Below are positions 5,701-45,899 of a stretch of 64,000 bases of DNA, in pieces (the first letter of the stretch is position 1; each line of letters begins with the position of its first letter). The notes beneath the pieces were generated by a model that was not told the origin of the DNA, did not search any database, and worked only from the letters and a program-made list of their open reading frames with translations. The DNA is from an uncultured Gemmatimonadota bacterium (GTDB lineage Bacteria > JAAXHH01): contig OX638340.1 in NCBI GenBank assembly GCA_951812955.1, positions 1-64,000 on the forward strand. Direction: 5' to 3'. Position numbers and translations under genes: made by a program.

Positions 5701-5705
5701 ATCCC

Positions 5706-6386
5706 ATGCGTCGTAAAATACCGCTCATCATCACATTCATCATCGGCGTTGTCCTGGTCACAGGGTATTTCGTGACAAGGGGACCGTTCAACACGCTGTA
5801 TGAGAGTTTCTCCGATTATTTCGCCATCATTACGGTCTTCGCCTTCATCCTCGGCGGCGGCAGTCTGCTAAAGATTCATTTGAAACGCGTTTCCAACCGA
5901 TCCACGGACTGGCCCTACAGTGTGGTAACCCTGGCGGGGTTCCTCGTCACCCTGGTGATCGGACTGTTCAAGGTGGGCAATCCGGATGGGATGGGCGGGG
6001 AGATCCTGGCTGCCGGTTCCTGGCTGCGCTTCCTGTTCGACGGGGTCTACAATCCGCTGTCGGCGACCATGTTCTCCCTGCTGGCCTTCTTTGTCGCCTC
6101 GGCGTCCTACCGGGCCTTCAGAGCGCGTACGAAGGAGGCCACCATCCTCCTTTCCGCCGCCATGGTCATCCTGCTGGGCAGAACCCCCGTGGGCGCCTGG
6201 CTGACGGCCTGGATGCCGGAAATCCTGGGATTTCTCGAACTGCCGAACCTGGCCAACTGGATCATGGCCTGGCCGAACACGGCCGGCCAGCGTGCGATAA
6301 TGATCGGCATCGCCCTGGGGGTCATCGCGACCTCACTGCGCATCATCCTGGGGATCGAGCGCAACTACCTGGGCAGGAGGGAGTGA
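5706..6386 (+). CDS. polytopic integral membrane protein (226 aa)
   Basis: ATG at 5706 lies 5 nt after the upstream stop. There are 5-6 hydrophobic helices ('IPLIITFIIGVVLVTGYFV', 'FAIITVFAFILGGGSLL', 'VVTLAGFLVTLVIGLF', ...). The track's longer N-terminus (from 5361) is an Arg/Gly-rich readthrough inside the previous gene. Confidence 0.5.
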   Translation: MRRKIPLIITFIIGVVLVTGYFVTRGPFNTLYESFSDYFAIITVFAFILGGGSLLKIHLKRVSNRSTDWPYSVVTLAGFLVTLVIGLFKVGNPDGMGGEILAAGSWLRFLFDGVYNPLSATMFSLLAFFVASASYRAFRARTKEATILLSAAMVILLGRTPVGAWLTAWMPEILGFLELPNLANWIMAWPNTAGQRAIMIGIALGVIATSLRIILGIERNYLGRRE

Positions 6387-6388
6387 GC

Positions 6389-7288
6389 ATGCGGATTCCC
6401 GATTCCATCCTGCATATCGACCGGCGGATCATCTTCCTGCTCATCGGGGCGGCCGTCTGCATACCCCTGATCCTGCAGCCCCGCTTCCAGGACAGTCCCA
6501 CGCCTATCGTCCAGTCGATTTTCGACACGGTGGAGCGGCTGCCGTCCGGGTCGCGCGTATTCCTTTCCTTCGATTACGGTCCGGACACGGCGCCCGAACT
6601 GGATCCCATGGCCAAGGCCCTCGTGCGGCACACGATGACCCGGGGCCACGAGGTGTCCTTCTTCACCCTGTTCCCCGAAGGGCTGGGACAGATCAAGAAG
6701 ATCACGGACAACCTGCTGCCTGTGGAGTTCCCGGAGAAAGCCTATGGCAGGGATTTCGTGAACCTGGGTTACAAGGCCGGCCTGGGTGGCGCGATTAATA
6801 CGATGGTCGTCAACTTCCGAACGCTGATCAATGCCGACGCGGAGGGCACGCCGCTCGACGATCTGCCCATGACCGCGGATGTCGACGAGATGGTGGACTA
6901 TGCCATTATCCTCAGCCTGACCGCGGGCGACCCGGGACTGAAGGAGTGGATTCAGTTCGCGGGCGATATCGCGGGGATTCCCGTCATGGGCGGGGGCACC
7001 GCCGTGGTGGCGCCGGAACTGTATCCCTACTATCCTCAGCAACTGGTCGGCCTGATGGGCGGCCTCAAGGGCGCTTCCGAGTACGAGTCCGCCCTTGTGG
7101 ACCGGTATCCGGCCTACCGTAACGCCACCATGGACGCCACCATGCGCATGGGGCCCCAGGTCGTCACCCACGTGCTGATCGTCCTGCTGATCCTGCTGGG
7201 CAATCTGGCTTACTTCTTCGGCCGATCTGGCCGACCGGGCCGGAATGACCGGACGGACCGGGCGGACCAGGCGGACCGCAGGCGTTAA
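6389..7288 (+). CDS. bitopic membrane-anchored protein (about 300 aa) with N- and C-terminal TM helices; the C-terminal tail is encoded by a 9-bp repeat
   Basis: GGAGG at 6377-6381 precedes the ATG at 6389; GTG at 6383 is an alternative that overlaps the upstream TGA. TM 'IIFLLIGAAVCIPLIL' near the N-terminus and 'VVTHVLIVLLILLGNLAYFF' near the C-terminus. Terminal 'GRSGRPGRNDRTDRADQADRRR' is low complexity. Confidence 0.5.
   Translation: MRIPDSILHIDRRIIFLLIGAAVCIPLILQPRFQDSPTPIVQSIFDTVERLPSGSRVFLSFDYGPDTAPELDPMAKALVRHTMTRGHEVSFFTLFPEGLGQIKKITDNLLPVEFPEKAYGRDFVNLGYKAGLGGAINTMVVNFRTLINADAEGTPLDDLPMTADVDEMVDYAIILSLTAGDPGLKEWIQFAGDIAGIPVMGGGTAVVAPELYPYYPQQLVGLMGGLKGASEYESALVDRYPAYRNATMDATMRMGPQVVTHVLIVLLILLGNLAYFFGRSGRPGRNDRTDRADQADRRR
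7243..7280. repeat. 9-bp tandem repeat (RGGCGGACC) x3-4 inside the 3' end of the 6389-7288 CDS
   Basis: Seen directly: ggacggacc / gggcggacc / aggcggacc (7251-7277). It belongs to the same family as the arrays at 18810-18935 and 21110-21175. Confidence 0.7.
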
Positions 7289-7299
7289 AGGAACGGCGT

Positions 7300-7974
7300 A
7301 TGGATGTTACACTGCAGCTTTGGATCGACGCGGCCCTGACGCTGATGATCCTCAGCTTCCTGTACCGTGACAATCCTTTCTACAAATTCGCCGAACATCT
7401 CTTTGTCGGCGTGTCCGCCGCGTACCTCATGGCAATCGGATTCTGGGACCACCTGGTCCCGAACCTGCTGGGCAAACTGTTCCCCTCGCTCATGTCGGGG
7501 GTCGTGCCCGGCGCCGTCGGCCGGTCGCCGGATTACTACTACATCATCCCCGCCGTCTTCGGCCTGCTGCTTCTTACCCGCCTGGTCGACCGCTGGGCCT
7601 GGCTCAGCCGGTGGGCGCTGGCGTTCATCGTCGGCGGCTCGGCGGGATTCAACCTGCCCCGCTTCCTGGATTCGGACTTCATCATTCAGGTCCAAAGCAC
7701 CATGGTTCCGCTCGTGGTGCTCGACCCGGCTGGCAATCTGCTCTGGGGCGCGAGTTTTTCCCACATTGTACTCGTTCTGGGCGTGATCTGCGGACTGGTG
7801 TACTTCTTCTTCTCCGTAGAACACAAGGGGATACTGGGACACGTGTCTCGTGCTGGGATCTGGGTGTTGATGGTGACCTTCGGCGCCGCCTTCGGATACA
7901 CGGTCATGGCGCGCATCTCCCTCCTCACCGGCAGGATGGAAGCCCTGGGCGCCTGGCTCGCCACCATGTTCTGA
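7300..7974 (+). CDS. polytopic integral membrane protein (224 aa), last gene of the candidate operon
   Basis: AGGAA RBS before the ATG at 7300. At least 5 hydrophobic helices ('AALTLMILSFLY', 'LFVGVSAAYLMAIGFW', 'YYYIIPAVFGLLLL', 'IVLVLGVICGLVYFFF', 'IWVLMVTFGAAFGYTV'). Confidence 0.5.
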   Translation: MDVTLQLWIDAALTLMILSFLYRDNPFYKFAEHLFVGVSAAYLMAIGFWDHLVPNLLGKLFPSLMSGVVPGAVGRSPDYYYIIPAVFGLLLLTRLVDRWAWLSRWALAFIVGGSAGFNLPRFLDSDFIIQVQSTMVPLVVLDPAGNLLWGASFSHIVLVLGVICGLVYFFFSVEHKGILGHVSRAGIWVLMVTFGAAFGYTVMARISLLTGRMEALGAWLATMF

Positions 7975-7992
7975 TTGGAGACCGTCGCGCGG

Positions 7993-8040
7993 CCCGGTCC
8001 GATGTCCGGGCGACCCGGTCCGATGTCCGGGCGACCCGGT
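7993..8040. repeat. 21-bp direct tandem repeat x2.3 (CCCGGTCCGATGTCCGGGCGA) just downstream of the operon
   Basis: Seen directly at 7993-8013 and 8014-8034 plus a partial third copy. It contains the CGGACCGGG core shared with the 9-bp repeat family (reverse orientation). Confidence 0.8.
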
Positions 8041-8156
8041 ACCGGCACCCATGATTTCTGTTGCGCATTGCCATGGCCCGCTGTTATTTACTGAACCGTT
8101 CATTTCGGTCCCGGCCCGTGACGTCGGGACAGGGCGTACACGCGTAATGGAGTCCC

Positions 8157-9134
8157 ATGCAAGCCATCATCCCCGTTGCGGGCAGCGGAAGCCGGTTGCG
8201 CCCGATCACGCCAGGAACCCCCAAGGCCCTGGTTCCCGTCGCGGGGAAGCCGGTGCTCGAGTACATCCTCGAACAGATTGCCGGCCTGGGCATCCGCGAG
8301 GTCATACTGGTCATCTCCCCCTCGGGGGACGCCATCCGCGGCTTTGTCGATCAACGTGATGAGCTCGAGGCCCGGTACGTCGTACAACGCGAGCCGCTCG
8401 GGATCGGTCACGCCGTGTATCAGTGCCGCGGCCTGCTGAATGACGGCCCCGTCCTGGTCGTACTGGGCGATATAATCTACCTGTCGGACTATTCCTTCCT
8501 GGGCAAAGAACCGCCGGGCCACGCTATCGGCGTAAAGCGCGTATCAGGCGATCTTACCGGGTACGGGCTGGTAGAAGTCTTGGACGGGCGGATCACCCGG
8601 CTGGTGGAGAAACCCGATCATCCCATCTCCAATACGGCGATCGCCGGGATCTACTATTTTTCCAGGTCCGGTCCGCTCATGGATGGACTGGAGAACCTTG
8701 TCAAGTCAGATCGAAGGACCCGAAACGAGTATCAGCTAACGGACGCGCTGCAGTGGATGGTGGAAAAGGGCGAGCATCTGTCTCCCTTCGACGTCGACCA
8801 CTTGTACGACTGCGGCACGCCGGACCGTCTGCTGGAGGCCAACCGGCGGCTTCTGGACCTGAACGGGGGGAACTGCAGCATACCGGGCAGCGTCATCATA
8901 CCGCCCGTCGACATCGCCTCCGGCGCCCGGGTGCACCGATCCGTCGTCGGTCCCCACGTCGCCATCTCGTCCCGGGCCTCCGTCGTGCGCACCGTCGTAC
9001 GCGACGCCACCATCGGAACCTGCGCCCGGATCGAAAACTGTGATCTCAGGCGTTCCGTCGTTACGCCGCACGCCGTGTTGGCCGACACCGTAGAACGTGC
9101 ATCGACCGGCGCGCGTTGCGCGGTTTATGTCTGA
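8157..9134 (+). CDS. sugar-phosphate nucleotidyltransferase (NTP_transferase domain plus C-terminal left-handed beta-helix)
   Basis: N-terminal 'MQAIIPVAGSGSRLRPITPGTPKALVPVAGKPVLEY' is the canonical G-x-G-x-R-L nucleotidyltransferase signature (RmlA/GlmU/ManC-like). The C-terminal hexapeptide-like region is 'SVIIPPVDIASGARVHRSVVGPHVAIS'. Sugar specificity cannot be called. Confidence 0.75.
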   Translation: MQAIIPVAGSGSRLRPITPGTPKALVPVAGKPVLEYILEQIAGLGIREVILVISPSGDAIRGFVDQRDELEARYVVQREPLGIGHAVYQCRGLLNDGPVLVVLGDIIYLSDYSFLGKEPPGHAIGVKRVSGDLTGYGLVEVLDGRITRLVEKPDHPISNTAIAGIYYFSRSGPLMDGLENLVKSDRRTRNEYQLTDALQWMVEKGEHLSPFDVDHLYDCGTPDRLLEANRRLLDLNGGNCSIPGSVIIPPVDIASGARVHRSVVGPHVAISSRASVVRTVVRDATIGTCARIENCDLRRSVVTPHAVLADTVERASTGARCAVYV

Positions 9135-9192
9135 CCATGTACCGATAACCGATCGTCCCCGATCCTCAGGCAGTTCATTAGGAGCATGACAC

Positions 9193-10335
9193 ATGACACC
9201 TGGTTACCTCTTTACTTCCGAATCCGTTACCGAAGGCCATCCCGATAAAGTCGCAGACCAGATCTCCGACGCCGTATTGGACTCCGTCATCGAGCAGGAC
9301 CCCTATTCCCGGGTGGCCTGCGAGACCTTCGTCACTACGGGCCTGGTGCTTGTCGGAGGGGAGATCACGACAGACGGCTACGTGGACGTGCAACGCGTGG
9401 CGCGCGAGACCGTCAAGTCCATCGGTTATACGGACTCGGGATTCGGGCTGGACTGGGAGTCCTGCGGCGTGGTCGTTTCCCTCGACCAGCAATCGGCCGA
9501 TATCGCCATGGGGGTGGACCGGGAGGGCGCCGGCGACCAGGGCATGATGTTCGGCTACGCGACCAACGAGACCCCTGAAATGATGCCTCTGCCCATTACC
9601 CTCGCCCACCGGCTGACCCGCAACCTCGCGTCGATCCGGAAGGACGGCGTTGCGCCTTACCTGCGTCCCGACGGAAAGTCACAGGTCACGGTGGAATACG
9701 TGGACGGCAGTCCCCGGCGGATCGACTCTGTGGTCATCGCCGCCCAGCACGACCCGGACGTCTCCGGCGAGAAGATCAGGGAGGACATCGTCAACGAGGT
9801 AATCGGTCCCGCGCTGCCGGCCGAGTTGGTTGACCCGGGCCGGATCAAGTACCACGTCAACGCGACCGGCCGTTTCGTTACGGGGGGACCGCAGGGCGAC
9901 GCCGGCCTGACAGGCCGGAAGATCATCGTGGACACGTACGGCGGCTACTGCCGCCACGGCGGCGGAGCCTATTCGGGCAAGGACCCGACCAAGGTGGACC
10001 GCTCGGCTTCCTATGCCGCGCGCTACGTCGCCAAGAACGTCGTCGCGGCGGGTCTGGCGGAGAAGTGCGAGATCCAGCTCGCCTACGTCATCGGCGTGGC
10101 CGAACCGGTTTCGGTCAATGTAGATACCTTCGGCACGGGGACCGTCGACGACCTGGAGATCACGCGCCTGATCCGCAAGCACTTCGACCTGACGCCGCAG
10201 GGCATCATTGAGCGTCTCGACCTGAGGCGGCCGATATACCGTCCCACGGCTTCCTACGGCCACTTCGGACGGAACGAGGCGGGTTTCACCTGGGAGCAAT
10301 GCGACAAGGTGGAGGAACTCAGGAACCACGCCTGA
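9193..10335 (+). CDS. metK: S-adenosylmethionine synthetase
   Basis: '[24 protein letters not shown]', '[12 protein letters not shown]', '[27 protein letters not shown]' are hallmark MetK motifs. An AGGAGC RBS lies upstream. Confidence 0.95.
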
Positions 10336-10352
10336 GCAGGAAGGGGCTTGGT

Positions 10353-10388
10353 CCGTGAACGCGTTACTGCGGGTGACCGCGTTCACGG
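10353..10388. terminator. candidate bidirectional stem-loop terminator between convergent metK and lptG
   Basis: 11-bp perfect inverted repeat CCGTGAACGCG (10353-10363) / CGCGTTCACGG (10378-10388) with a 14-nt loop. There is no U-tract, so it is only hairpin-type. Confidence 0.4.
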
Positions 10389-10401
10389 TGTCACGGGGGT
10401 C

Positions 10402-11484
10402 TCATTTCGGCGCCCTGACCAGCAGAATCAGGGCGAGTAGTCCGAAGAGCGCGTTGGCGCCCCATGCCGCCGCCATGGGCGGGAGCAATCCGGCGTGACC
10501 GAAGGCCTGGGCAAATCGGAGCAGTCCCCAGTAGACGAAACAGATCCCGATACTCAGGGCAAATCCCACCGCGACGCCGCCCCGTCTCAGATGGGAGGCC
10601 AGCGCGCCGCCCAGCAGCACGATGATCAGACCCGCGCCCGGAAATGCGATCTTCAGGTTGAGGTCTACCAGGTAGCCCTGCACGTCTCCTCCTCCCCGCC
10701 GTACGTTCTGAATCAACTGGTCGAGTTCGCCGTAACTCATCTCCTCGGGGCGTTTCTGCCCTCGCAGGAAGTCCTCCGGCGTCTCGGACCATCCGTCGGG
10801 TTCCAACTCGGCGAACGAGGTGTATTCGGACAGTCCGCCTCCAACCAGAAACTGTCGTTTAACCCCGTTGAAAAGCAACCAGCGCCCATCCATCCAGACG
10901 GCGCGTTCCGCCGTGAGGACGCTGGTGACGGAGCCGTCGCGGAACTCGGTGACGTGTATCCCCGTGCCCTCCTCGATGCGTCCGTTGAAAACGCGGATAT
11001 AGATCTGGCGCCCTCCATCTCCCCTGAAATACACATCGTACCGGATGTGTTGCCCTGCGCCGCCTTGCATGTCCACGTGTTCCGATTTGATTTCGGCACG
11101 TTTCATGCTCGTGTGGGGAACAAGCCATTCACCGGCCCAGAACAGGCATGCGCATACCACCACGCTGACGAGGAGCATCGGCCGCAGCAACCGGTACAGG
11201 CTGAGCCCCGATGCTTTCATGGCGGTCAGTTCTCCCAGCCTGGTCAGCTGGCCGAAGGTATAAAGACTGGCGAGCAGCAGACTGACAGGAATCGTGAGCA
11301 CGAAGATGTAGGGCATGTAATAGACGTAGTAGAGCGCGATATAACCCGGTGCCACGTTGCGGTCCAGGAATCGGTCCAATTGCTCGATGAGATCGACCAC
11401 GAAGAAGATGCTGACGAAGGCGACCAGGCTGACGGCGATGGCGGTAATGAACAGGCGGAGTACGTACCGGGTGATCAGGGACAT
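10402..11484 (-). CDS. lptG: LPS export ABC permease, LptG (YjgP/YjgQ family)
   Basis: 360 aa; N-terminal 'ITRYVLRLFITAIAVSLVAFVSIFFVVDLIEQLDRFL', 'AMKASGLSLYRLLRP', a periplasmic beta-jellyroll segment, then 3 C-terminal TM helices. This is the LptF/LptG architecture. It is second in the gene pair, so called lptG. Confidence 0.8.
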   Translation of the reverse strand: MSLITRYVLRLFITAIAVSLVAFVSIFFVVDLIEQLDRFLDRNVAPGYIALYYVYYMPYIFVLTIPVSLLLASLYTFGQLTRLGELTAMKASGLSLYRLLRPMLLVSVVVCACLFWAGEWLVPHTSMKRAEIKSEHVDMQGGAGQHIRYDVYFRGDGGRQIYIRVFNGRIEEGTGIHVTEFRDGSVTSVLTAERAVWMDGRWLLFNGVKRQFLVGGGLSEYTSFAELEPDGWSETPEDFLRGQKRPEEMSYGELDQLIQNVRRGGGDVQGYLVDLNLKIAFPGAGLIIVLLGGALASHLRRGGVAVGFALSIGICFVYWGLLRFAQAFGHAGLLPPMAAAWGANALFGLLALILLVRAPK

Positions 11485-11521
11485 GAAGTAGCGTTCCTCT
11501 GGTGATTTCGACGCAATGACG

Positions 11522-12748
11522 TCAGATGCGATCCCTGCCGCTGACCCAGACCAGGACGGCTCCGGGTACGCCTATGACGATGTTCGCGGCCCACATCGCC
11601 CAGACTGGATCGATCAGATCGCGGTCCGCCAGTTCTTCGCCGCCGAGCAGGCAGGCCCAGTACAGGAGGAAGAAGCAGAGGCTGACGCCGACGCTCACGC
11701 CCATGCCGCTCCGGCGGATACGCACACCCAGCGGCGCGCCGATCAGCACGAAGACGAGACACGCCGCCGAAATGGCGTACTTTTTGTGGATTTCGACGAC
11801 GTAGCTGTTCTTCTGCCGCTGCCTCAACGAGATCGTCCGCTGCGCTTTGGCCCTGGCCGCTTCGATGGAATCTGTCTTCGCCTGCGAGTGAACCGGCCCG
11901 GGTACAAGACTTGCCGCGACCTCGTCGATCTCCAGTTGCCATTCATCGATTTTCGCCTGCATCATTTCAATGTTCAATTCGCGGTCGCCCCGGGTTCCCG
12001 CCTCCGACCGCTGGACGCCGCTGGGCGCGGTGCGAATCGAAAACCGCTGCCGCTCGAAGACCTCTTTGAAATACCGCCCCGTAGACTCGTCCTGTTGAAG
12101 GAGCTCTCCGTCATAGAGCATCAGGTTGATCCTGCTGCCCGTCTCGTTGACGTGAAACTCGCCCGACCTGGCCGTCATGATGCGCGGGTAGCGCAGGTTC
12201 TCCGTTTCGTAGATGGTGATGCTTTCAATCTCATTGTTCCTCGGATTGACCCGGTCGATCAATATGCTGTATCCCGGAATGTCCTTCATGAATATGCCTG
12301 CGGTGAAAAGCAGCGTGGGACGGGCGCGGTGGATATCGTTCATGAGCGAACGGGCCCGGTAATTGGCTTCGGGCAGGATGACGTCCATAAAGTACAGGTG
12401 ACTGCCGCCAAGGAGTATTCCCAGAACCAGCACGGGTGAGACCATCTGGTAGAAACTGACGCCGCCCGCCTTGAACGCCGTGACTTCGTTATCGGCCGAA
12501 AGCCGGCCGAAAGCCATGAGACTGGCGACCAGTACGGACATGGGAATCGATACGGCGACGATCCAGGCAAGGTTGAGAAAGAAAACCTCGAGCACGGTAA
12601 GCAGTTCGAGGTTCTTGCCTATGATGAGGTCGGCAATCTGAAATATGATGTCCATCACGAGGATGAACGTGATGATCACGAATGAAAACAGAAAGGGCCC
12701 GACGTGCGCTTTAAGAACGTATCGGTAGAGGTGAACCGGGAGGGTCAT
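11522..12748 (-). CDS. lptF: LPS export ABC permease, LptF (YjgP/YjgQ family)
   Basis: 408 aa; 'LYRYVLKAHVGPFLFSFVIITFILVMD', 'AFKAGGVSFYQMVSPVL'; same architecture as the adjacent paralogue. Confidence 0.8.
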   Translation of the reverse strand: MTLPVHLYRYVLKAHVGPFLFSFVIITFILVMDIIFQIADLIIGKNLELLTVLEVFFLNLAWIVAVSIPMSVLVASLMAFGRLSADNEVTAFKAGGVSFYQMVSPVLVLGILLGGSHLYFMDVILPEANYRARSLMNDIHRARPTLLFTAGIFMKDIPGYSILIDRVNPRNNEIESITIYETENLRYPRIMTARSGEFHVNETGSRINLMLYDGELLQQDESTGRYFKEVFERQRFSIRTAPSGVQRSEAGTRGDRELNIEMMQAKIDEWQLEIDEVAASLVPGPVHSQAKTDSIEAARAKAQRTISLRQRQKNSYVVEIHKKYAISAACLVFVLIGAPLGVRIRRSGMGVSVGVSLCFFLLYWACLLGGEELADRDLIDPVWAMWAANIVIGVPGAVLVWVSGRDRI

Positions 12749-12929
12749 GGGCCAATCCGGTGGAATACGGACCGGGGCAGGGTGTTCCGACGAGTTCGGT
12801 GCCGGGCATCGTCGACGATAGTTTCGATGTTATTGATGGTCCCTCGACTATATGAATATACCGCGTGGTATCGAGGGGAAGCAAGCTGTTTTATACTGAG
12901 CGACGCTCCCGATTTGCCGGGAATTTCGC

Positions 12930-12958
12930 TTGACTTGCCGTACGTGCCGCGCTATACT
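12930..12958 (+). promoter_or_regulatory. near-consensus sigma70-type promoter for ssb
   Basis: TTGACT (12930-12935), a 17-nt spacer, then TATACT (12953-12958). An AAGGAG RBS sits at 12979-12984, 8 nt before the ATG at 12993. Confidence 0.55.
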
Positions 12959-12992
12959 CATTTCATTCATTTACAGATAAGGAGCATCCTTG

Positions 12993-13430
12993 ATGGCCAG
13001 TTTAAACAAAGTCATTCTGATCGGTAATCTCGGCGCTGATCCCGAAATGAGGTACACGCCTTCCGGCCGGGCCGTGGTCAATTTCCGCATGGCCACTACG
13101 CGCCAGTGGAACACGCAGGACGGAGAACGGCGGGAAGAAACGGAATGGCACCGGATCGTAGCCTTTTCCAAACTCGCGGAGATCTGTGGCCAATATCTCA
13201 AGAAAGGCGCTCCGGTGTATGTTGAAGGACGGCTGCAAACCCGTTCCTGGGAGGATCAGAACGGGATGAAGCGATATATGACGGAGATCGTAGCGAACGA
13301 GATGCAAATGCTGAGTGCCCGCCAGCAGAGCGAGGTTTCATCGGACGCGCCCGGTGGAATCGGAAATACCGCGACGGAAGAGCCGCCTTCTTCGCCAGGG
13401 ACCGATTCCGACGACGACCTTCCGTTTTGA
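12993..13430 (+). CDS. ssb: single-stranded DNA-binding protein
   Basis: '[36 protein letters not shown]...[41 protein letters not shown]' is the OB-fold. The acidic C-terminal tail ends 'DSDDDLPF', the canonical SSB tip. Confidence 0.95.
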
Positions 13431-13499
13431 CGTCATTCGAGGGATAGTCCGTTTTCGCAGCCGGTTGATCCATACATCGTGGGCCAGTAGTGAGAACCC

Positions 13500-14198
13500 A
13501 TGACCGTTAGACTTAGCGGCAACGGACTTCCTCGAATAACGATCCTTATCGCCCGGCAGGAACCCGTCGATTCGCTGATCAGGTGGCTTCGCGGCGCGGG
13601 TTACCCTTTGACGGAACTGCGTTACACCGTCGTCGAAGACCTCCACGCCCGAATTCCCGATTCGGACATCCTGCTCTTCCATACGGATCGTCCAAGTTCG
13701 GACCTCCCCATTGTGATGGATGAATTGAAGTCTCGGCAGATACTGCGGGCTCCCGCGGTCATTGTGCTGACCGGCTGCGATGCCATCGGTGACTTGGACG
13801 TAACCCGTGGAATCGACGATTTCATTTGCGCGCCATACGATATCCGCGAGTTCGACCTGCGCATCAAGAACGTCCTCTGGCGCCGGCACAGCGTGCGGAT
13901 TCAGGATATGATCGTCTGGGGCGACCTGCTAATCAACCTGGGCAACTACGAAGTCACGATCCGGGGCAAGTCGATCGACCTGACGCTCAAGGAATACGAG
14001 TTGCTCAAGCACCTGGCCAGGCACCGGGGGAGGGTGTTCACCCGGGATGAACTGCTGACGGCCGTATGGGGATATGATTACTTCAGCGGTACGAGGACGG
14101 TGGACGTGCACGTGAGGCGGCTGCGGATGAAGATAGAACGCCACGGCGTTCATATCATCACGACCGTCCGGGGGGTCGGGTACAAGTTCGGAGACTGA
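13500..14198 (+). CDS. OmpR/PhoB-family winged-helix transcriptional regulator with an atypical (probably phosphorylation-independent) receiver domain
   Basis: C-terminal 'LTLKEYELLKHLARHRGRVFTRDELLTAVWGYDYFSGTRTVDVHVRRLRMKIE...VRGVGYKF' is a clear Trans_reg_C domain. The N-terminal half is receiver-like but lacks the acidic DD pair and the conserved Lys ('ICAPYD' where K-P is expected). Confidence 0.75.
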   Translation: MTVRLSGNGLPRITILIARQEPVDSLIRWLRGAGYPLTELRYTVVEDLHARIPDSDILLFHTDRPSSDLPIVMDELKSRQILRAPAVIVLTGCDAIGDLDVTRGIDDFICAPYDIREFDLRIKNVLWRRHSVRIQDMIVWGDLLINLGNYEVTIRGKSIDLTLKEYELLKHLARHRGRVFTRDELLTAVWGYDYFSGTRTVDVHVRRLRMKIERHGVHIITTVRGVGYKFGD

Positions 14199-14199
14199 A

Positions 14200-15942
14200 A
14201 TGCGCAGGACCGCGTTGATCATACTTACATCCGCGTGCGTGATTTTCGGGTGCGCGTACTACAATACCTTCTACAACGCCAGGAAAGCGTTCAAAGAAGG
14301 GGAGCGCATTCGGCTCAGTCAGCAGACGCCCGACGGCGGCTTGCCTCCACAGGCCATTGCCTCCTACGAACTCGCGATCGAAAACGCGGGTCTTGTCCTG
14401 CGGGACCATGCGGGAAGTTCCCTGGTCGACGACGCATTGGTCCTGATCGGCGACGCACTGGCGATCCAGGGGCGGCACGAACAGGCCGTTAAGAGATATC
14501 AACAAGTCCTGAGGTTGTTCCCGGACAGCGAATTTACCGGCCACTGCGTTTTTTCACTCGGTCTCGGCTTGCTCAACGCGGGTGATTCCACACGGGCAGA
14601 TGAGCTGCTGGATCGCTTCGTTCGCGAATATCCCGGCAGCGACCGAATCCCGGACGCCTTCATGCTGCGGGGGAAGATCTCCTTCGGCGGCGCCCGCTAC
14701 GAAGAGGCCGTCTCGCGGTTTCAAGATATTCTGGAACAGCATACGAGCCACGATATGAAAGCGGAAGCCAGGTACTACATCGCACGGTCCAAGCTGGAAC
14801 TGAGTCTATACGCCGATGCAAGGGAACACCTGGAACAAGCCATCGAGCAGGCCCGGTCGAACAGGTTGAAATTTCAGGCCAGTTTCATGCTGGGTGAAAG
14901 TATGCGGCGCGAAGGGAGTATTACCGGCGCGCTGGAGGTGTTCGAATCGCTGTTGGATCTGCGCGCCTACCGAGATTACCACCCCGAGGTCATGCTGGCG
15001 ATGGCGGCCTGCCTTGCCGAACTGGACCGGCATGAAGCGGCCGTTTCCAGGTACGAGTCCGTCATTTCGTTATACGAATCAGACCGAAATCACGCGGAGG
15101 AAGTCTCGCGTGCCATGTTCGAACTGGGGGAATTGTACCGGATCGCAGGCGACCTGGAGTTGGCGGAACAAAGGTACGCCGACGCGCGGCGCGCGAGTCC
15201 GCGTTCGTTCTGGGTCGGTGACGAGTCCGATCGCAAGTTCCGAGCCATCGGTGAACTGCGTCGTCTGAGCCAGAACCTTGGAAACATGCAGGTCGCGTTG
15301 GAATCGGTCAGACCTTCCGGCGATACCGAATCGACAAGCCCATCGAACTTCGCGAAGTTGATGGATAGCGTGATCGGGCTTCGATTCCAACTGGCTGAAC
15401 TTTATCTGTTCAGATTGGAGATGGCCGACTCGACATTGAGCCAGTATCGTGCCATAGAAAAGGAGTCGGCCGATCCCTCCATGGCCGCCAAGGCGGCCTT
15501 CGCGAGGGCCTGGGTACTCGAGGAAATATTGAAGGACAGGGTAAACGCGAGATCGGTCTATGACGCCATCGCCGTGCTGTATCCCGGGACTGCTCACGCC
15601 GTGGAGGCATCCATCGCACTATCGAAACCGATTGAAGGCGAACTTCCTCAGGACCGGCTGTTTGCGGAGGCGGAACGGCTGCTTTTCGAAGCGGACCAGC
15701 CGGACTCCGCGCGTGGCCTGTACGAACTGGTCATTCGCCGGTATCCGGATGGAGCATTCGCGCCGCGTGCGCTCTTTGCCCTTGGATGGCTCGCCGAGAC
15801 GCGTTTCGACGATCCGGAAACGGCCCTCGGACACTTCCATGAAATCGTGGAACGCTATCCCGGGTCGGAACAGGCGGAGTCCGTCCGCGACAAGATTCGC
15901 CTCATGGAAGAACTGCGTCCAGCGGCGGATCCGGACAAATGA
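14200..15942 (+). CDS. tetratricopeptide-repeat (TPR) lipoprotein
   Basis: N-terminal 'MRRTALIILTSACVIFGCAYYN' is a lipobox-type signal with Cys. The rest is multiple TPR-like A/Y/L-rich helical repeats. ATG at 14200 follows the regulator's stop by 1 nt. Confidence 0.7.
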   Translation: MRRTALIILTSACVIFGCAYYNTFYNARKAFKEGERIRLSQQTPDGGLPPQAIASYELAIENAGLVLRDHAGSSLVDDALVLIGDALAIQGRHEQAVKRYQQVLRLFPDSEFTGHCVFSLGLGLLNAGDSTRADELLDRFVREYPGSDRIPDAFMLRGKISFGGARYEEAVSRFQDILEQHTSHDMKAEARYYIARSKLELSLYADAREHLEQAIEQARSNRLKFQASFMLGESMRREGSITGALEVFESLLDLRAYRDYHPEVMLAMAACLAELDRHEAAVSRYESVISLYESDRNHAEEVSRAMFELGELYRIAGDLELAEQRYADARRASPRSFWVGDESDRKFRAIGELRRLSQNLGNMQVALESVRPSGDTESTSPSNFAKLMDSVIGLRFQLAELYLFRLEMADSTLSQYRAIEKESADPSMAAKAAFARAWVLEEILKDRVNARSVYDAIAVLYPGTAHAVEASIALSKPIEGELPQDRLFAEAERLLFEADQPDSARGLYELVIRRYPDGAFAPRALFALGWLAETRFDDPETALGHFHEIVERYPGSEQAESVRDKIRLMEELRPAADPDK

Positions 15943-16090
15943 TGCGTTGACATCCGGCCCGGCCGGCTGTATCGTAGAGGAGCGAAAGCTGGAAGGCCAT
16001 GCGGTCCGGCAATGATGCGAATCCATGGAACTGGACGATCCGCGGTATCCGGATGCGACCTGAATCCCGTCCGCCTCACAGCAAGCGAGC

Positions 16091-16951
16091 ATGTCGACCA
16101 TCCCCATCTGCCAGTATGACGCCGAGATCCTGTCCAACCGTCAAATCGGTCCCGGTCTTTACTGGATCGACCTGCTGGCACCCGAAATCTCACGCCACGC
16201 CCAGCCCGGTCATTTCGTACACCTGATCGCTTCCGACGTCTCGAAGGACAGCAGCAGGCAGACCTGGCTCCGTCACACCCCCCTGCTCAGGCGCCCCTTC
16301 AGCATTGCCGAACGCGATCCAGAAAAAGGCGTTTTCGGACTCATCTACCGGATCGTCGGCGGCGGAACAGAGATCCTCGCCACACGGCGCGAAGGAGAAC
16401 GCGTAGATGTACTCGGTCCGCTGGGAAGGACATTTGAGCCGATACGCGCGGGACGGCCGGTGATCATGGTCGCGGGCGGGGTCGGGGTAGCGCCCTTTCT
16501 CTCCCTGGCACAGGAGACGGTAAGAGATGGGCGGTCGGACCCGGCGGAAATGACGGTGCTGTTCGGCGCGGCGACGGCTGGCCTGTTGAGCGGGGAAGAG
16601 AAATTCCGCCAACTGGGGGTCGACGTCAAGCTGGCAACCGACGATGGCACGACCGGTCACCACGGCCTGGTGACGGATATGCTGGAACGGGAACTTGCCC
16701 GGTCGCCCCGGCAGTGCGCTTATCTCTATGCCTGTGGACCCACGCCCATGATGCGGCGCTGCCAGGCAATCGCCCGGGAGGCCGGTATCGACGGACAGGT
16801 TTCCCTGGAGGGGATCATGCCCTGCGGCGTGGGGGTCTGCATGGCCTGTGTCGTTCCCTGCGTCATCCCCGGCGATCGATCGTCACCCCGCCGCTACGAG
16901 CGGGTTTGCGACACCGGTCCGGTTTTCGATATGGAGGAGGTCGTGTTGTGA
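16091..16951 (+). CDS. pyrK: dihydroorotate dehydrogenase electron-transfer subunit (FAD/2Fe-2S)
   Basis: FNR-like 'RRPFSI' and 'GGVGVAPF' motifs, and the C-terminal Cys cluster 'MPCGVGVCMACVVPC' typical of PyrK. Confidence 0.85.
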   Translation: MSTIPICQYDAEILSNRQIGPGLYWIDLLAPEISRHAQPGHFVHLIASDVSKDSSRQTWLRHTPLLRRPFSIAERDPEKGVFGLIYRIVGGGTEILATRREGERVDVLGPLGRTFEPIRAGRPVIMVAGGVGVAPFLSLAQETVRDGRSDPAEMTVLFGAATAGLLSGEEKFRQLGVDVKLATDDGTTGHHGLVTDMLERELARSPRQCAYLYACGPTPMMRRCQAIAREAGIDGQVSLEGIMPCGVGVCMACVVPCVIPGDRSSPRRYERVCDTGPVFDMEEVVL

Positions 16952-17898
16952 AGGCACAACCCGATTTATCGGTTAGCATCGGAGCGCTGAAACTCAGAAA
17001 CCCCGTCCTCGCCGCGTCGGGTACCTTCGGATACGGATCTGAATACGGCCGGTTCGTGAATCTCTCTGACTTCGGCGGAATCGTCACCAAGACACTCACG
17101 CCGGAACCCTGGCCCGGCAATCCTCCACCGAGGGCCGCGGAAACGGCCGCCGGCATGCTCAATTCCATCGGACTGCAGAACGTGGGCGTAGAGGCTTTTG
17201 TCCGGGACAAGATGCCGTATCTGAGAAAAATGGATACCGCGTTAATCGTCAACGTGGGCGGGGGGCCGGTCGAGGAATTCGTCTACGTGACCGAACGCCT
17301 GTCCGACTGTGAAGGCATCGATGCGCTGGAGATCAACATGTCCTGCCCAAACGTGTCGGGGGGGTTGGACTTCAGCACCGATCCGCGGCGCGCGGGAGAA
17401 CTCGTTTCCGCGCTGCGCAGCATCACGGACCTGCCGGTCATCGCAAAACTCACGCCGAACGTTACGGACGTCGGGGAAATCGCCCGCAGCGTCGAAGATG
17501 CCGGCGCCGACGCGATATCTGCAATCAACACGCTACGTGGCATGGCGGTGGACATCCGCACGCGCCGTCCCGTACTGGGCGCAGTCACGGGCGGTCTTTC
17601 GGGGCCGGCCATCAAGCCCGTGGCAATAGCGGCCGTTTACCGGATCGCAAGCCAGGTGGACGTTCCGGTCATCGGAATCGGCGGTATCATGAGTGGCGAA
17701 GACGCCGTAGAATTCCTCGTGGCCGGCGCCACGGCCGTTCAGGTTGGAACGGCCAACTTCGTCGAGCCCCGCTCAGGCGCGTCCGTCGCGCGGGAGTTGG
17801 CCGGCTGGTGCGCCGCGTCGGACATACACTCGGTCCGCACACTGATTGGAAGCATGCGGATCCCGTCACAAGAGGACGTTCCATGTCACCCTTTGTAG
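16948..17898 (+). CDS. pyrD: dihydroorotate dehydrogenase catalytic subunit (class 1B)
   Basis: GTG start at 16948 overlaps the pyrK stop. 'LKLRNPVLAASGTFGYG', 'IVTKTLTPEPWPGNPPPR', 'NSIGLQNVG', 'NMSCPNV', 'GIGGI' match PyrD. The upstream part of the ORF-track frame (from 16714) lies inside pyrK. Confidence 0.9.
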   Translation: MKAQPDLSVSIGALKLRNPVLAASGTFGYGSEYGRFVNLSDFGGIVTKTLTPEPWPGNPPPRAAETAAGMLNSIGLQNVGVEAFVRDKMPYLRKMDTALIVNVGGGPVEEFVYVTERLSDCEGIDALEINMSCPNVSGGLDFSTDPRRAGELVSALRSITDLPVIAKLTPNVTDVGEIARSVEDAGADAISAINTLRGMAVDIRTRRPVLGAVTGGLSGPAIKPVAIAAVYRIASQVDVPVIGIGGIMSGEDAVEFLVAGATAVQVGTANFVEPRSGASVARELAGWCAASDIHSVRTLIGSMRIPSQEDVPCHPL

Positions 17899-18695
17899 AC
17901 AGTTTGAACCGTGCTCGCGACAGGACGAACAGCCTGGTCTGCGTGGGACTCGATCCGGACGTGGATCGGTTTCCGGAGCACTTGAAATCGGGAAATGATG
18001 CGGTATTCGAGTTCAACCGGTCGATCATCGAGCACACATCGGACCTCGTATCGGCCTATAAGCTGAACATCGCATTTTTCGAAGTCATGGGTGCCCGGGG
18101 CTACGAGGTGCTCGAGCGCACGCTCACGGTGATCCCGGAAGAGGTCGTGGTGATCTGCGATTGCAAGCGGGGCGACATGGGGAATAGCGCGCGCATGTAC
18201 GCGAAGGCGCTGTTCGAGCACTTCGGATTCGACGCGGTGACGGTCAATCCCTACCAGGGGCGGGATTCCGTTCAGCCCTTCCTGAATTACACCGACCGTG
18301 GGGTCTTCATCCTCTGCCTGACTTCCAACGAGAGCTCGCGCGATTTCCAGCACCTGTCCGTCAACGGACATCCACTGTATATCGAGGTGGCCAGTGCGGC
18401 AGAGTCCTGGAACACCGCCCGAAACGCGGGGCTGGTGGTGGGCGCTACGCAGGCGGAGTCACTGGCGGAGATACGTGCCGTCTCCCCCGACATGCCTCTG
18501 CTGATACCGGGGATCGGCGCCCAGGGCGGCGACCTGGAAACCGTCATCCGCGCCGGCGCCGACACCAGCGGCGGTGGACTGCTCATCAATTCCTCCCGGA
18601 GCATACTTTATTCCTCCGGCGGCCTCGATTTCGCCGAGTGCGCCCGGGCGGCGACGCTAAGGCTCAGAGCAGAGATCAACACCCTGCTTCCCTGA
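17883..18695 (+). CDS. pyrF: orotidine 5'-phosphate decarboxylase (long/type-2 form)
   Basis: 'LVCVGLDPD', 'KLNIAFFE', 'ICDCKRGDMGNSA'; ATG at 17883 overlaps the pyrD 3' end. Confidence 0.85.
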   Translation: MSPFVDSLNRARDRTNSLVCVGLDPDVDRFPEHLKSGNDAVFEFNRSIIEHTSDLVSAYKLNIAFFEVMGARGYEVLERTLTVIPEEVVVICDCKRGDMGNSARMYAKALFEHFGFDAVTVNPYQGRDSVQPFLNYTDRGVFILCLTSNESSRDFQHLSVNGHPLYIEVASAAESWNTARNAGLVVGATQAESLAEIRAVSPDMPLLIPGIGAQGGDLETVIRAGADTSGGGLLINSSRSILYSSGGLDFAECARAATLRLRAEINTLLP

Positions 18696-18809
18696 ATACC
18701 ATGCTCGGTCCGGCGTCAGGCCACGCCACGGTTTTTCGGACCCTGCGTAACCGGATGTATCGACACGGGCGTAAATCCCGTGTTTCAAGGAACGTCGACC
18801 GATGCGGAA

Positions 18810-18935
18810 CAGGATCAATCGGACCAATCGGGCCAATCGGACCAGTCCGGCCAGGCGGACCGAGTGGGCAAATCTGGCCAAGCTGGCCAAGCTGACTAGG
18901 CGGACCAGGCGGACCGAGCTGACCAGGCGGACCAG
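18810..18935. repeat. array of 9-bp/hexamer-type tandem repeats (…GGACCAATCGG… and …AGGCGGACC…) upstream of the methyltransferase gene
   Basis: Seen directly: caatcggaccaatcgggccaatcggaccagtccggccaggcggacc ... ctggccaagctggccaagctgactaggcggaccaggcggaccgagctgaccaggcggaccag. It gives Arg/Thr/Asn repeats in the + frame and a PGP/IGP repeat in the - frame. Confidence 0.7.
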
Positions 18936-18939
18936 AGAC

Positions 18940-19479
18940 ATGGAGACCAACTTCGAGGTACGCAGTTTCGATGCGGAGATCACAAAGGAAGCGTACGACA
19001 GGCTGCCCAAGCTGCCGCTGTATTTCGTACTGGACAACCTGCGCAGCGCATTCAACGTGGGTTCCATATTCCGGACCTGCGACATCCTGCGGGTTAAAAG
19101 CCTCTTTCTGTGCGGTTACACGGCCTGTCCGCCCCACGCGAAGCTGGAGAAGACGGCCCTGGGCACCATAGATTACGTCCCCTGGCGTAATTTCGAGTCG
19201 GCCGTCGACGCGGTCGACTACCTGCGAGACAGAAGCGTCGCGGTGTGGGCCGCCGAAACGGCTTCGGGTTCGGTTCCGTATGACGAGGCGGTATTTCCGG
19301 ACGAATTGGCGATCGTCCTGGGTAACGAGGCGCTGGGCGTGAGCCGCGACGTGCTGGAACGGTGTGACGGCCTGGTCGAAATCCCCACGCGGGGCTACAA
19401 GAATTCGCTCAACGTGGCGTCCGCCTGCGCGGTCCTGGGATTCAAGGCGCTGGAGCAAATGGAAGGGAAATCGAACTGA
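18940..19479 (+). CDS. SpoU/TrmH-family RNA 2'-O-methyltransferase
   Basis: 'VLDNLRSAFNVGSIFRTCD', 'IVLGNEALGVS', 'LVEIPTRGYKNSLNVASACAVL' are the SPOUT motifs. Start chosen at 'METNFEV' because the 46-aa upstream extension is repeat-encoded low complexity. Confidence 0.75.
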   Translation: METNFEVRSFDAEITKEAYDRLPKLPLYFVLDNLRSAFNVGSIFRTCDILRVKSLFLCGYTACPPHAKLEKTALGTIDYVPWRNFESAVDAVDYLRDRSVAVWAAETASGSVPYDEAVFPDELAIVLGNEALGVSRDVLERCDGLVEIPTRGYKNSLNVASACAVLGFKALEQMEGKSN

Positions 19480-19505
19480 CCGGGTCGAATGATCCTGCGG
19501 GAAGG

Positions 19506-20285
19506 CTACGGGTCGCTCGACCAGGTCTTCCTGCCCACGAAGAACGGTCCCAGCGAATCGATGTACAGGGCGGTCTGCTGGGTCTTACGCATGTCCTGGA
19601 CGACCCGTGAGAGCGGGTAAAGTTCCTTGCCGAGCAGTCCGATGACGAAGTCGTTGTCCGCCTCGTCCAGCCCGTAGCAAGCCAGGCGGATGTCGTGGGC
19701 GAAGTCGGCCCGGCCGTAGGCTCGGCCGATGTGGGCGTGCTCCATCAGGATCTGGCGCTGCTCCTTGTGTTCAAGGCGGGCGAAGGCGCCGTTCCGTCTC
19801 AGGGGATACCAGATAGCCCAGGGCCAGTCGGGATTGAGCACGGTGTTGCGCGGCCGGTGTATGAGCGATTCCTTCAGGTCCGGTTCGTATCCCATGGAGT
19901 AGGTCCTGCCGAACATCGTCATGTTTCCGCGTAGTTCCATCGCATCGAACGGACTGACAGTCAACAGGTTCCGGACGTCCGTTACGAAGGCATCCGGATC
20001 TTCGGCCAGGAACAGCACGCCGATACCCGTGGGATCGTTGACATCGAGATACACCGCGGAATCCAGACCGGATTTCCGCAGCGCGACGATGCATTCGCCG
20101 GTTATGTCCGGGGCCCGCCGGACGGATTCCCGGCTGGACACGGTGAACACATTGAGCTGCATGTACAGCCGTGTTTCGGCCGTCTGGGCCTGGCCGTTTA
20201 CTGGCGCTCCGCGTTCGAGTATATCTGGGGTCCTGCCGGTGTCTTCGTTCACGTCGCTTCCCTGCCTTCTCTTTGACGATTCCAT
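19506..20285 (-). CDS. hemQ: chlorite-dismutase-family coproheme decarboxylase (HemQ/ChdC-like)
   Basis: Cld-family ferredoxin-like fold motifs 'LYMQLNVFTV', 'IGVLFLAEDPDAF', 'WPWAIWYPLRR', 'LMEHAHIGRAYG'. Start at 'MESSKRR' (20285), because the longer ORF would overlap the divergent hemH start. Confidence 0.7.
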   Translation of the reverse strand: MESSKRRQGSDVNEDTGRTPDILERGAPVNGQAQTAETRLYMQLNVFTVSSRESVRRAPDITGECIVALRKSGLDSAVYLDVNDPTGIGVLFLAEDPDAFVTDVRNLLTVSPFDAMELRGNMTMFGRTYSMGYEPDLKESLIHRPRNTVLNPDWPWAIWYPLRRNGAFARLEHKEQRQILMEHAHIGRAYGRADFAHDIRLACYGLDEADNDFVIGLLGKELYPLSRVVQDMRKTQQTALYIDSLGPFFVGRKTWSSDP

Positions 20286-20380
20286 CCCAAAACCCGTGGC
20301 TGGACGCGGGTAAATTACGGAGGAGACGGCAGCATGGCAAGCAAATCCGGGGTTATGAGATCTGACAGGGAGGAAGCCCG

Positions 20381-21430
20381 TTGAACTACGACGCATTGCT
20401 CCTGGTATCATTCGGGGGCCCGGAAGGCGCCGCCGACGTCCTCCCCTTTCTCGAGCGCGTGCTCAAAGGCCGGCGCGTTCCCAGGGAACGAATGATGGAG
20501 GTCGCGGAACACTACCACCATTTCGGTGGGGTCAGCCCGATAAACAGCCAGAACCGGGCACTGATCTCCGCCCTTGAAAGCGCGTTGGCGAACCGCGACC
20601 TTCCCCTCCCGATCTACTGGGGAAACCGGAACTGGCATCCCTTGCTGGCGGATACGGTCCGGCGGATGGCCGCGGACGGGATCCAACGGGCGCTGGCCCT
20701 CGTTACGTCCGCCTACAGCTCCTATTCGAACTGCAGGCAGTACCTCGAGAACATCGAGGATGCCCGGCGCGAGGTGGGCGGCGGCGCCCCGAAAATCGAC
20801 AAGATCAGGCCCTTTTTCCATCATCCGGGTTATATCGAAACGATGGAGGCACGCGTTCGTTCCGCCCTGGACCGCTTGCCGGAAGCGCGCCGCGCCTCGG
20901 CGCACCTGGTGTATACCGCCCACAGCATACCCCTGGCCATGGCTCGGGGATGCGCGTACGAAGCGCAACTCCGGGAAGCCTCCCGGCTCATCAGCGCGCG
21001 CGCGGGCGCTTCCTCCTGGACGCTGGCATTTCAAAGCCGCAGCGGTCCGCCCGCTCAGCCCTGGCTGGAACCCGATGTCTGTGATTACATCCGGTCGTTC
21101 CACGAGACTGGCGCGGGCCGGGCGGACCGAGCGGACCGAGCGGGCCGGGCGGACCGGGCGGACCGGGATATCGTGTTGATCCCCGTAGGATTCATCTCGG
21201 ACCACATGGAAGTGGCCTACGACCTGGACATTGAAGCGCGGGCGTGTTGCGATGAGCTCGGGGTACGCATGGTCCGGGCGGAAACGGCGGGGACTCATCC
21301 CCGCTTCGTGGAAATGATCGTGGAACTCGTCGAAGAACGCCTGTCCCTGACGACGGCCAGGGCGGCCGTGGGTGTCCTGGAACCGTGGCCCGATCGATGC
21401 CCGCCGGACTGCTGCCCTTCCGGCAGGTAG
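20381..21430 (+). CDS. hemH: ferrochelatase (likely coproporphyrin ferrochelatase CpfC) carrying an in-frame repeat insertion
   Basis: 'LLVSFGGPEG', 'SPINSQNRALISALESAL', 'YWGNRNWHP', 'IPVGFISDHMEVAYDLDIEA' are ferrochelatase signatures. 'GAGRADRADRAGRADRADR' immediately before the 'IVLIPVGF' strand is encoded by the 9-bp repeat. Confidence 0.85.
   Translation: MNYDALLLVSFGGPEGAADVLPFLERVLKGRRVPRERMMEVAEHYHHFGGVSPINSQNRALISALESALANRDLPLPIYWGNRNWHPLLADTVRRMAADGIQRALALVTSAYSSYSNCRQYLENIEDARREVGGGAPKIDKIRPFFHHPGYIETMEARVRSALDRLPEARRASAHLVYTAHSIPLAMARGCAYEAQLREASRLISARAGASSWTLAFQSRSGPPAQPWLEPDVCDYIRSFHETGAGRADRADRAGRADRADRDIVLIPVGFISDHMEVAYDLDIEARACCDELGVRMVRAETAGTHPRFVEMIVELVEERLSLTTARAAVGVLEPWPDRCPPDCCPSGR
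21110..21175. repeat. 9-bp tandem repeat (CGGACCGRG/CGGGCCGGG) x about 6 inside hemH
   Basis: Seen directly: ggccgggcggaccgagcggaccgagcgggccgggcggaccgggcggaccggg. Confidence 0.8.
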
Positions 21431-45769: not shown

Positions 45770-45899
45770 GATACCCGCGGTCAACCCGCGCTTCGATCCG
45801 TTCCGTTTCCGCGGGGGCTGGCGCGTCGCCCGATGACGGCCTCCACAGGCCAGGGCGGGTTCGACCATGATACTCGGAAAACCGCCATACGCGGCCCGG

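Follow-up and report, generated by a model that had tools for sequence, protein, structure and literature searches.

Tandem repeats are generally scarce in the genomes of bacteria. The STRR heptamers of heterocystous cyanobacteria are one described family, in which a few short units occur in tandem at dispersed, mainly intergenic sites within one lineage, and the unit of 7 bp is not frame-neutral. In Mycobacterium tuberculosis the PGRS/MPTR repeats follow a 9-bp CGGCGGCAA consensus inside the PE_PGRS genes, one paralogous family in which the repeats are the body of the protein. Short tandem repeats were found not to be enriched in bacteria overall, with exceptions among host-adapted species (PMC12699852, PMC4060949); simple sequence repeats (SSRs) have been described in B. 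pseudomallei (PMC12699852), and phase-variable SSRs form contingency loci in Haemophilus, Neisseria and Bartonella (PMC2651432, PMC11466379). Long SSRs have units of 5-11 bp and were reported to be linked with dependence on a eukaryotic host (Mrazek, Guo and Shah 2007, as cited in PMC4060949). Here a 9-bp tandem repeat family is reported from an uncultured Gemmatimonadota bacterium (assembly GCA_951812955.1), in positions 1 to 64,000 of the forward strand of contig OX638340.1, a stretch called the window below. The arrays probably represent a lineage-specific and hypervariable family of long SSRs, or variable-number tandem repeats (VNTRs), which would have grown in place by slippage at native seeds and been filtered by selection.

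A 9-bp unit composed of a CGGACC core and RRG was common to three tandem arrays of the window, at 7240-7278, 18811-18936 and 21113-21166, which were the only period-9 stretches found there in a self-similarity scan. All three were in frame within coding sequence. The motif CGGACCNNNCGGACC, with at most one mismatch allowed, matched 14 times in the 64-kb window against 1.46 expected, and this number was reached in 0 of 100 shuffles; 12 of the 14 matches were located inside the three arrays, all on the + strand. Tandem Repeats Finder (TRF) gave a period of 9 at 7247-7278 (3.6 copies) and at 21113-21167 (6.1 copies, here also with a higher-order period of 27 bp), and a period of 9/18 at 18812-18935, where about 14 units were present. 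Higher-order periods of 27 and 45 bp were found in arrays of the window or of related strains. With a head-to-tail unit of period 9 and 3.6 to about 14 copies, the arrays fall into the size range of the long SSRs.

A preliminary description, made from the letters alone, had recognized one 9-bp motif at these three places, which was borne out by TRF, self-similarity and the motif count, and its quoted translations of the membrane-protein tail and the ferrochelatase insert were correct. It had further spoken of Arg/Asp/Ala low-complexity inserts. Such inserts, Arg/Asp/Ala(/Gln) in composition, are indeed generated, but the peptide is not what the arrays share: the reading frame differs between them (D-R/Q-A, R-T-R or G-P-G), so the common denominator is the DNA motif.

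Array 1 (7240-7278, + strand) contained about four units of GACCGGGCG-type 9-mers read as D-R/Q-A, and made the C-terminal tail ...GRPGRNDRTDRADQADRRR, followed by the stop codon, of a conserved membrane protein without a Pfam match (6389-7288, + strand, 299 aa from the ATG at 6389, MRIPDSIL...). The open reading frame (ORF) was 6383/6389-7288 and was closed by the array. Within one 90%-identity cluster this protein was 296, 299, 302, 305 or 308 aa long, in exact 3-aa steps. The operon of its gene also contains a MutL-like gene (PF13941) and a gene with DUF6754. The surrounding + strand gene string, 1836-7974, was conserved and syntenic in all relatives including the far one; it encoded the PF13941 'MutL' (600 aa), which is of the glutamate-mutase-associated type and not a mismatch repair protein, a 374-aa protein, the DUF6754 protein, and three proteins without a Pfam match, two of which look membrane-embedded.

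Array 2 (18811-18936, + strand) consisted of 14 degenerate 9-bp units (CGGACCAAT, CGGGCCAAT, CTGGCCAAG, CGGACCAGG and others), read as R-T-x. It belonged to the gene of a SpoU/TrmH-family RNA 2'-O-methyltransferase (18802-19479, + strand, 225 aa), with PF00588 at residues 73-212. The array had at first been assigned to the upstream or leader region of this gene, and it turned out to be N-terminal coding sequence. It lies between the ATG at 18802 and the ATG at 18940, in frame with both. In the methylase it separates two conserved segments, MRNR at the start and GDMETNF. Array-free homologues over a wide range start with MRNR(x)GDMETNF, and several of them have no second Met (MPNRTGDTETNF, MPKRGDIETNF, MPRRGDTETNY), thus the upstream ATG (18802) is the true start. 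The gene's own frame was the only one free of stops through the array. An RNA element or leader was also tried for this region and rejected, as no Rfam family matched anywhere in the window, no promoter-like site was present, and the region lies downstream of the conserved start codon and is N-terminal coding in homologues. The sole feature near the array in the RNA and promoter check was a terminator-like hairpin 3' of the upstream gene.

Array 3 (21113-21166, + strand) had 6 units of GCGGACCGR or GCGGGCCGG, read as A-D-R or A-G-R, and was an insert at about residues 245-262 (...HETGAGRADRADRAGRADRADRDIV...) of a coproporphyrin-type ferrochelatase (PF00762; 20381-21430, + strand, 349 aa, with a Cys-rich C-terminus). 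Across 60 homologues of 74-97% identity, the insert occupied one and the same loop; it was absent in the 334-aa form and reached about 22 tripeptides in a protein of 400 aa. Solved ferrochelatase structures had an alignment gap at precisely this place, preceded by a helix and followed by the strand leading to the conserved VGF-x-DH-x-E. An AlphaFold model built with 62 sequences had a mean pLDDT of 86 and a pTM of 0.87, and its only segment with pLDDT below 50 was 246-259, which is the repeat, modelled as coil between helix 233-246 and strand 264-267. The array is thus predicted by the model to occupy a disordered surface loop. Degenerate inserts were stable in length (363 aa in 15/17 members of cluster 5) and purer inserts varied, which is the usual life cycle of a microsatellite. 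In cluster 6, which belongs to another sub-lineage (P0034, P0291-P0302), the same loop varied in 5-aa (15-bp) steps with DAARx-type units, so the loop is a hotspot of tandem duplication whatever the unit size. The ferrochelatase gene was divergently paired with a gene of the chlorite dismutase family (ChdC/HemQ-like) in 19506-21430; the enzyme had its best match to coproporphyrin III ferrochelatases, and its C-terminus reads CPPDCCPSGR. The ferrochelatase type and this neighbour, as judged from the sequence, point to a coproporphyrin-dependent haem pathway in the lineage.

Syntenic DNA was compared in three strains of 95-97% identity (L001, L002 and L004) and in one array-poor relative of about 80% identity, ERZ28763718 ctg125316, and 9-bp units were counted from register print-outs, which gave values for L001 and L002 at ferrochelatase and SpoU and for L004 at the membrane tail. 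The SpoU array had 14 units in the window, 9 in L001 and 17 in L002. The ferrochelatase array had 6.7, 5.7 and 3.7 units in the same order, and 1.7 in the far relative, which means no repeat. For the membrane tail the counts were 7.3 in the window, 9.3 in L004 and 2.3, again no repeat, in the far relative. Copy number therefore differs at the same locus between strains whose flanks are 95-97% identical. As the preliminary description had supposed, the arrays expand and contract without frameshift: the unit is three codons, changes of copy number keep the frame, and the differences among close strains were 9-bp (3-aa) steps, with all three loci in frame. Multi-unit blocks are duplicated besides single units, since L002 carried a 45-bp (5-unit) higher-order repeat of 2.6 copies and 95% identity at the SpoU N-terminus (L002 8416-8553; strain OY762445.1). 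Decay of units within arrays consisted mostly of transitions.

Comparison with orthologues lacking the insert, which had been proposed as a check, was possible through the relative of about 80% identity, which has empty sites with one proto-unit each. At the SpoU site it reads ATG CGG AAC CGG GCC GGG GAC ATG (MRNRAGDMETN), with one proto-unit, ...AAC CGGGCCGGG GAC..., which was seen by direct reading of the sequence, the site being unmatched in the unit-register comparison. Many other array-free SpoU homologues read MRNRTGD, and judged from the protein R-T-G would fit a CGGACCGGG-type unit. At the ferrochelatase site the far relative has HAGGGNRDIV and one motif-like 9-mer (GGCGGGAACCGG / GGGAACCGG), and its membrane protein ends in FIDRRSRQR and the stop, with the array absent and one motif-like 9-mer (AGCCGACAG) in the DNA. 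The word 'inserted', used before for these arrays, is hence misleading: the empty sites already hold a proto-unit, so the arrays most probably grew in place from native seeds and did not come from elsewhere. The single proto-units of the empty sites, together with the 27- and 45-bp periods, would fit growth by slippage or unequal exchange. Per 10 kb, there were 2.3 tandem repeats in the window and 2.2 in the close strains, while the far relative had 0.24 in its syntenic DNA.

It was considered whether the arrays could be artefacts of assembly or sequencing, from collapsed or chimeric repeats, as metagenome-assembled genomes (MAGs) from short reads may mis-assemble short tandem repeats, a general concern (PMC6868369). 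However, arrays were present at the same sites in independent assemblies, including Mb-scale single-contig chromosomes, and the reading frame was preserved in every case, which rules out an assembly artefact for practical purposes. Array lengths differed between independent assemblies only in steps that keep the frame, the flanks were collinear at 95-97% identity, and exact protein alleles including the repeat recurred across several samples. An artefact is accordingly regarded as extremely improbable. The SpoU, ferrochelatase and membrane-tail alleles of the window were identical to P0303 (100%), P0273 (349/349) and P0263, respectively.

A collection with one genome per species was scanned with the pattern CGGACCRRKCKGRCCRRKCGGACC, and at least 119 stretches were matched, with per-genome counts that are lower bounds. 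At least 12 of the 119 stretches listed were in five further genomes of the clade to which the window belongs, with 2-3 loci each, in about 0.003% of the bases scanned. The other genomes among the matches listed had one locus each and were mostly Streptomyces, Kitasatospora, Myxococcota and other GC-rich taxa. The clade arrays reached 11 units and were near-perfect repeats of CGGACCAGG or CGGACCGGG. Supported by Pfam, their loci included a sulfatase, an ABC transporter, the C-terminal tails of GrpE and LpxC-FabZ, and a protein of unknown function, and an aminotransferase carried the array at the same locus in two genomes. Some clade arrays lay just 5' of a Shine-Dalgarno sequence and start codon (L081, L056, L030). 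Outside the pattern matches, the clade loci contained about 0.7 further period-9 arrays per 10 kb; the non-clade matches, being selected by the pattern, are a poor control for repeat density.

The family had been taken as genome-specific. This does not hold, as at least five species-level genomes of the clade share arrays of the motif, and single (CGGACCGGG)n arrays are present in Streptomyces, Kitasatospora, Myxococcota and others as well; the repeat family is lineage-enriched, not genome-specific. The named homologues were MAGs of Gemmatimonadota, and SB0665_bin_8 is one genome of the clade. SB0665 is a sponge sample, and PMC7883664 counts other bins from it among the sponge-associated bacteria; from this single link the whole clade is probably sponge-associated. 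The non-clade loci (L017, L032, L107, L101, L110, L114, L043 and others) had one near-perfect array each, (CGGACCGGG)n or (CGGACCAGG)n of 5-10 units, in Kitasatospora, Streptomyces, Myxococcota, Actinomycetota, Limisphaerales and a Gemmatimonadaceae MAG. GPG/PGP and DRA were among the apparent frames, with coding (collagen-like) or intergenic location judged from codon-position GC alone.

The frame D-Q/R-A was used in 7/9 supported coding loci, namely ferrochelatase, membrane tail, sulfatase, ABC transporter, GrpE, LpxC-FabZ and the unknown protein, while the remaining two had G-P-G (aminotransferase) and R-T-R (SpoU); P-G-P (L083) was likely an antisense case. The hydrophobic antisense frames L-V-R and W-S-A were used by none of the nine Pfam- or homology-supported coding loci. 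This distribution looks like the result of selection. Selection could even act on copy number itself, with disordered linkers and tails modulating the enzymes, or arrays in 5' leaders modulating expression, and rapid variants arising in the manner of contingency loci. The preference for D-Q/R-A (about p=0.03 for any one frame), the arrays immediately 5' of Shine-Dalgarno sequences and start codons, and sites kept over long divergence, with the ferrochelatase insert in homologues down to about 74% identity, would agree with such adaptive tuning, as would the correlation of long SSRs with eukaryotic-host dependence, reported in PMC4060949. But a frame cannot be turned on or off by 9-bp units, and the genes that carry the arrays have cytoplasmic or housekeeping products (ferrochelatase, SpoU, GrpE, LpxC-FabZ, sulfatase) and are not surface or host-interaction genes. 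Many close relatives lack the insert and have an intact enzyme (the 334-aa forms), and the model shows the insert as a loop of low confidence where a strand begins, predicted to face away from the conserved DH.E catalytic stretch. Moreover, different samples yielded contigs with identical array alleles, P0008 being present on 6 of them, thus the mutation rate is not that of a phase-variable locus. Adaptive tuning is therefore considered unlikely.

For the lineage-specific VNTR family preferred here, each (CGGACC-RRG)n array would start at a site where the native sequence already had the motif once, exactly or nearly so. It would then grow via slipped-strand mispairing or unequal exchange, at times by multi-unit blocks of 27 or 45 bp, and point mutations, mainly transitions, would later blur the units. 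Selection would keep the frame-neutral units at tolerant positions, such as termini, surface loops, 5' leaders and intergenic DNA, and would keep the hydrophilic, disorder-prone frames, D-Q/R-A most often and also G-P-G and R-T-R. Replication slippage or unequal exchange may thus be the engine and purifying selection the filter. The surviving arrays are presumably passengers, most likely with a neutral or slightly deleterious effect, which give strain-specific length variants of ordinary enzymes and are not switches. The probable sponge association of the clade would also agree with the reported correlation between long SSRs and eukaryotic-host dependence (PMC4060949).

Several points weigh against this explanation. 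It leaves the dominance of this particular 9-mer unexplained, and neutrality is assumed in it. Isolated CGGACCRRG copies numbered 9 against 8.5 expected and were unexpanded in all strains examined. As these copies were not enriched, the idea of a HIP1-like element, dispersed in single copies, was also rejected. On single strands, hairpins of the arrays were no more stable than those of shuffles (z about -0.9), so a structure-driven bias of slippage is unsupported; when the pure motif and the real arrays were folded as DNA on both strands, z ranged from -0.95 to +0.9 against shuffles, which leaves hairpins or slipped structures as a cause without support. CGGACCGGG, hydrophilic in three sense and two antisense frames, is in the top class of frame robustness, 2.2% of GC-rich 9-mers; as 13% of GC-rich 9-mers are hydrophilic in all three sense frames, frame robustness is only suggestive and was set aside as a sole explanation. 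A few hundred arrays per 3.8-Mb genome would be expected by extrapolation from about 160 kb.

That the same 9-mer builds perfect 5-11-unit arrays at numerous loci without relation to each other, in several genomes, and that listed stretches are concentrated in the five clade genomes as noted above, might instead hint at a dedicated sequence-directed process, such as a tiny mobile element, template-directed addition, or nicking of the restriction-modification or Vsr type at GGWCC/CCWGG that provokes local re-synthesis. GGACC and CCAGG are both classic 5-bp methylase or restriction sites. Read from the sequence, the unit is GGACC overlapping CCAGG, and its variants CCAAG and CTAGG resemble deamination products of CCAGG, a resemblance that is anecdotal. 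On the other side, the empty sites hold a proto-unit and show neither a target duplication nor terminal inverted repeats, motif copies that stand alone have undergone no depletion and no expansion, and unrelated phyla have single arrays of the same kind. Within the 64-kb window, no gene for restriction-modification, Vsr or reverse transcriptase was seen. In addition, arrays of 12-, 15-, 18-, 21- and 33-bp units were also frequent and variable, so the propensity is general and not exclusive to the motif. A dedicated process of this kind is held to be very unlikely. In a broader form, there is a small chance that a motif-specific process, not generic slippage, seeds and expands (CGGACC-RRG)n, for which enzyme action at GGWCC/CCWGG or loss of a repeat-stabilising function, e.g. 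a single-strand exonuclease, would be candidates. If it were true, arrays would stand at hundreds of sites including essential enzymes, and the lineage would offer a natural bacterial model of a dispersed, lineage-driven microsatellite family.

The arrays with other units showed the generality of repeat-proneness in these genomes, of which the 9-bp motif is the most successful product. A related 21-bp duplication, previously given as 7993-8040, was real and extended over 7989-8040 (+ strand, 2.5 copies of GCGACCCGGTCCGATGTCCGG); it was intergenic, included CCCGGTCCG, the reverse complement of CGGACCGGG, and was single-copy in L004 (95.5% identical). An 18-bp array of 6 copies (GTCGGGTCCACCCAGGTG; 1308-1415, + strand) ended 8 bp 5' of the ATG of a 97-aa ORF, had a GGNCC / CCAGG flavour like the main motif on the opposite strand, and had about 2 copies in its L004 counterpart (5011-5048). 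A 15-bp array of 3 copies (TTCTGGCCAACCAGG; 1718-1765, + strand) began directly after the stop of the same ORF, with a counterpart in L004 (5331-5377) that showed differences. This ORF of about 97 aa (1423-1716), without a Pfam family, was thus flanked on both sides by different tandem arrays.

An in-frame 33-bp duplication of a different motif (23537-23605, - strand, 2.1 copies) was inside the gene of glutamine-dependent NAD synthetase (ORF 22480-24549), which encoded 689 aa with the duplication in the window and L001, and 678 aa without it in L002. A 12-bp array of about 7 copies (GGTGACGCGGAT; 47103-47189, + strand), with a unit unrelated to the 9-bp motif, was in frame in a DUF255/thioredoxin-like protein (ORF 45867-48398, 843 aa) and gave a GDAD/GDAE-type repeat. 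In the far relative, a 9-bp array (CCGGACCGT, 3.4 copies; L005 16911-16941 / L006 3064-3094) was found inside the SSB gene, the protein being 152 aa in this array-poor relative vs 145 aa in the array-rich strains, so the motif family is not fully absent there. The PcfJ-like family is known from conjugative plasmids. A 597-aa ORF of the window (48537-50330) with a C-terminal PcfJ-like domain stood among housekeeping genes, and no other mobile-element genes were seen near it.

In this uncultured and probably host-associated lineage, a single 9-bp motif has spread through many housekeeping genes, and these have not been inactivated by it. The arrays are ready-made VNTR strain markers of high resolution for tracking these bacteria, and, as a natural experiment, they can show what amount of disordered insertion is tolerated by conserved enzymes. 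Annotation and clustering call for caution, with variable protein lengths and starts and low-complexity inserts within enzymes. If the motif preference had a specific molecular cause, interest would rise, and the cause would be relevant to the question why some lineages of bacteria develop repeat families and others do not.

Neither the motif strings nor tandem repeats in Gemmatimonadota or sponge symbionts gave a match in the literature searched. Small mobile repeats (MITE/REP/SDR-like) do not fit, as folding was at z of about -0.9 vs shuffles, no inverted repeats were present, and the empty sites have a proto-unit already, between flanks that show no change. Contingency loci likewise have slippage-prone tandem repeats in or beside genes; however, there a unit that is not a multiple of three, or a repeat in a promoter spacer, switches surface or restriction-modification genes on and off, whereas here the unit is 9 bp, all observed coding alleles keep the frame, and the genes are ferrochelatase, SpoU, GrpE, LpxC-FabZ, sulfatase, aminotransferase and ABC transporter. 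The PGRS/MPTR repeats share the GC-rich 9-bp unit, the tripeptide repeats, the polymorphism among strains and the many loci, but here the repeats are small inserts in unrelated Pfam families and not the body of one. The STRR heptamers are alike in specific short units, in tandem arrays dispersed within one coherent lineage, and in a motif preference that is unexplained, while the present family differs in its 9-bp unit, largely coding location and Gemmatimonadota host. The closest likeness is with the long SSRs or VNTRs: a 9-bp unit repeated head to tail, copy numbers that differ among close strains, abundance in one lineage and an apparent association with a host. The differences are that one motif family dominates many unrelated loci and several species-level genomes, and that most gene-assignable arrays lie inside housekeeping coding sequence as in-frame tripeptide repeats. 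The repeat family is real and well supported, apparently undescribed, and of a kind of bacterial repeat that is already known.

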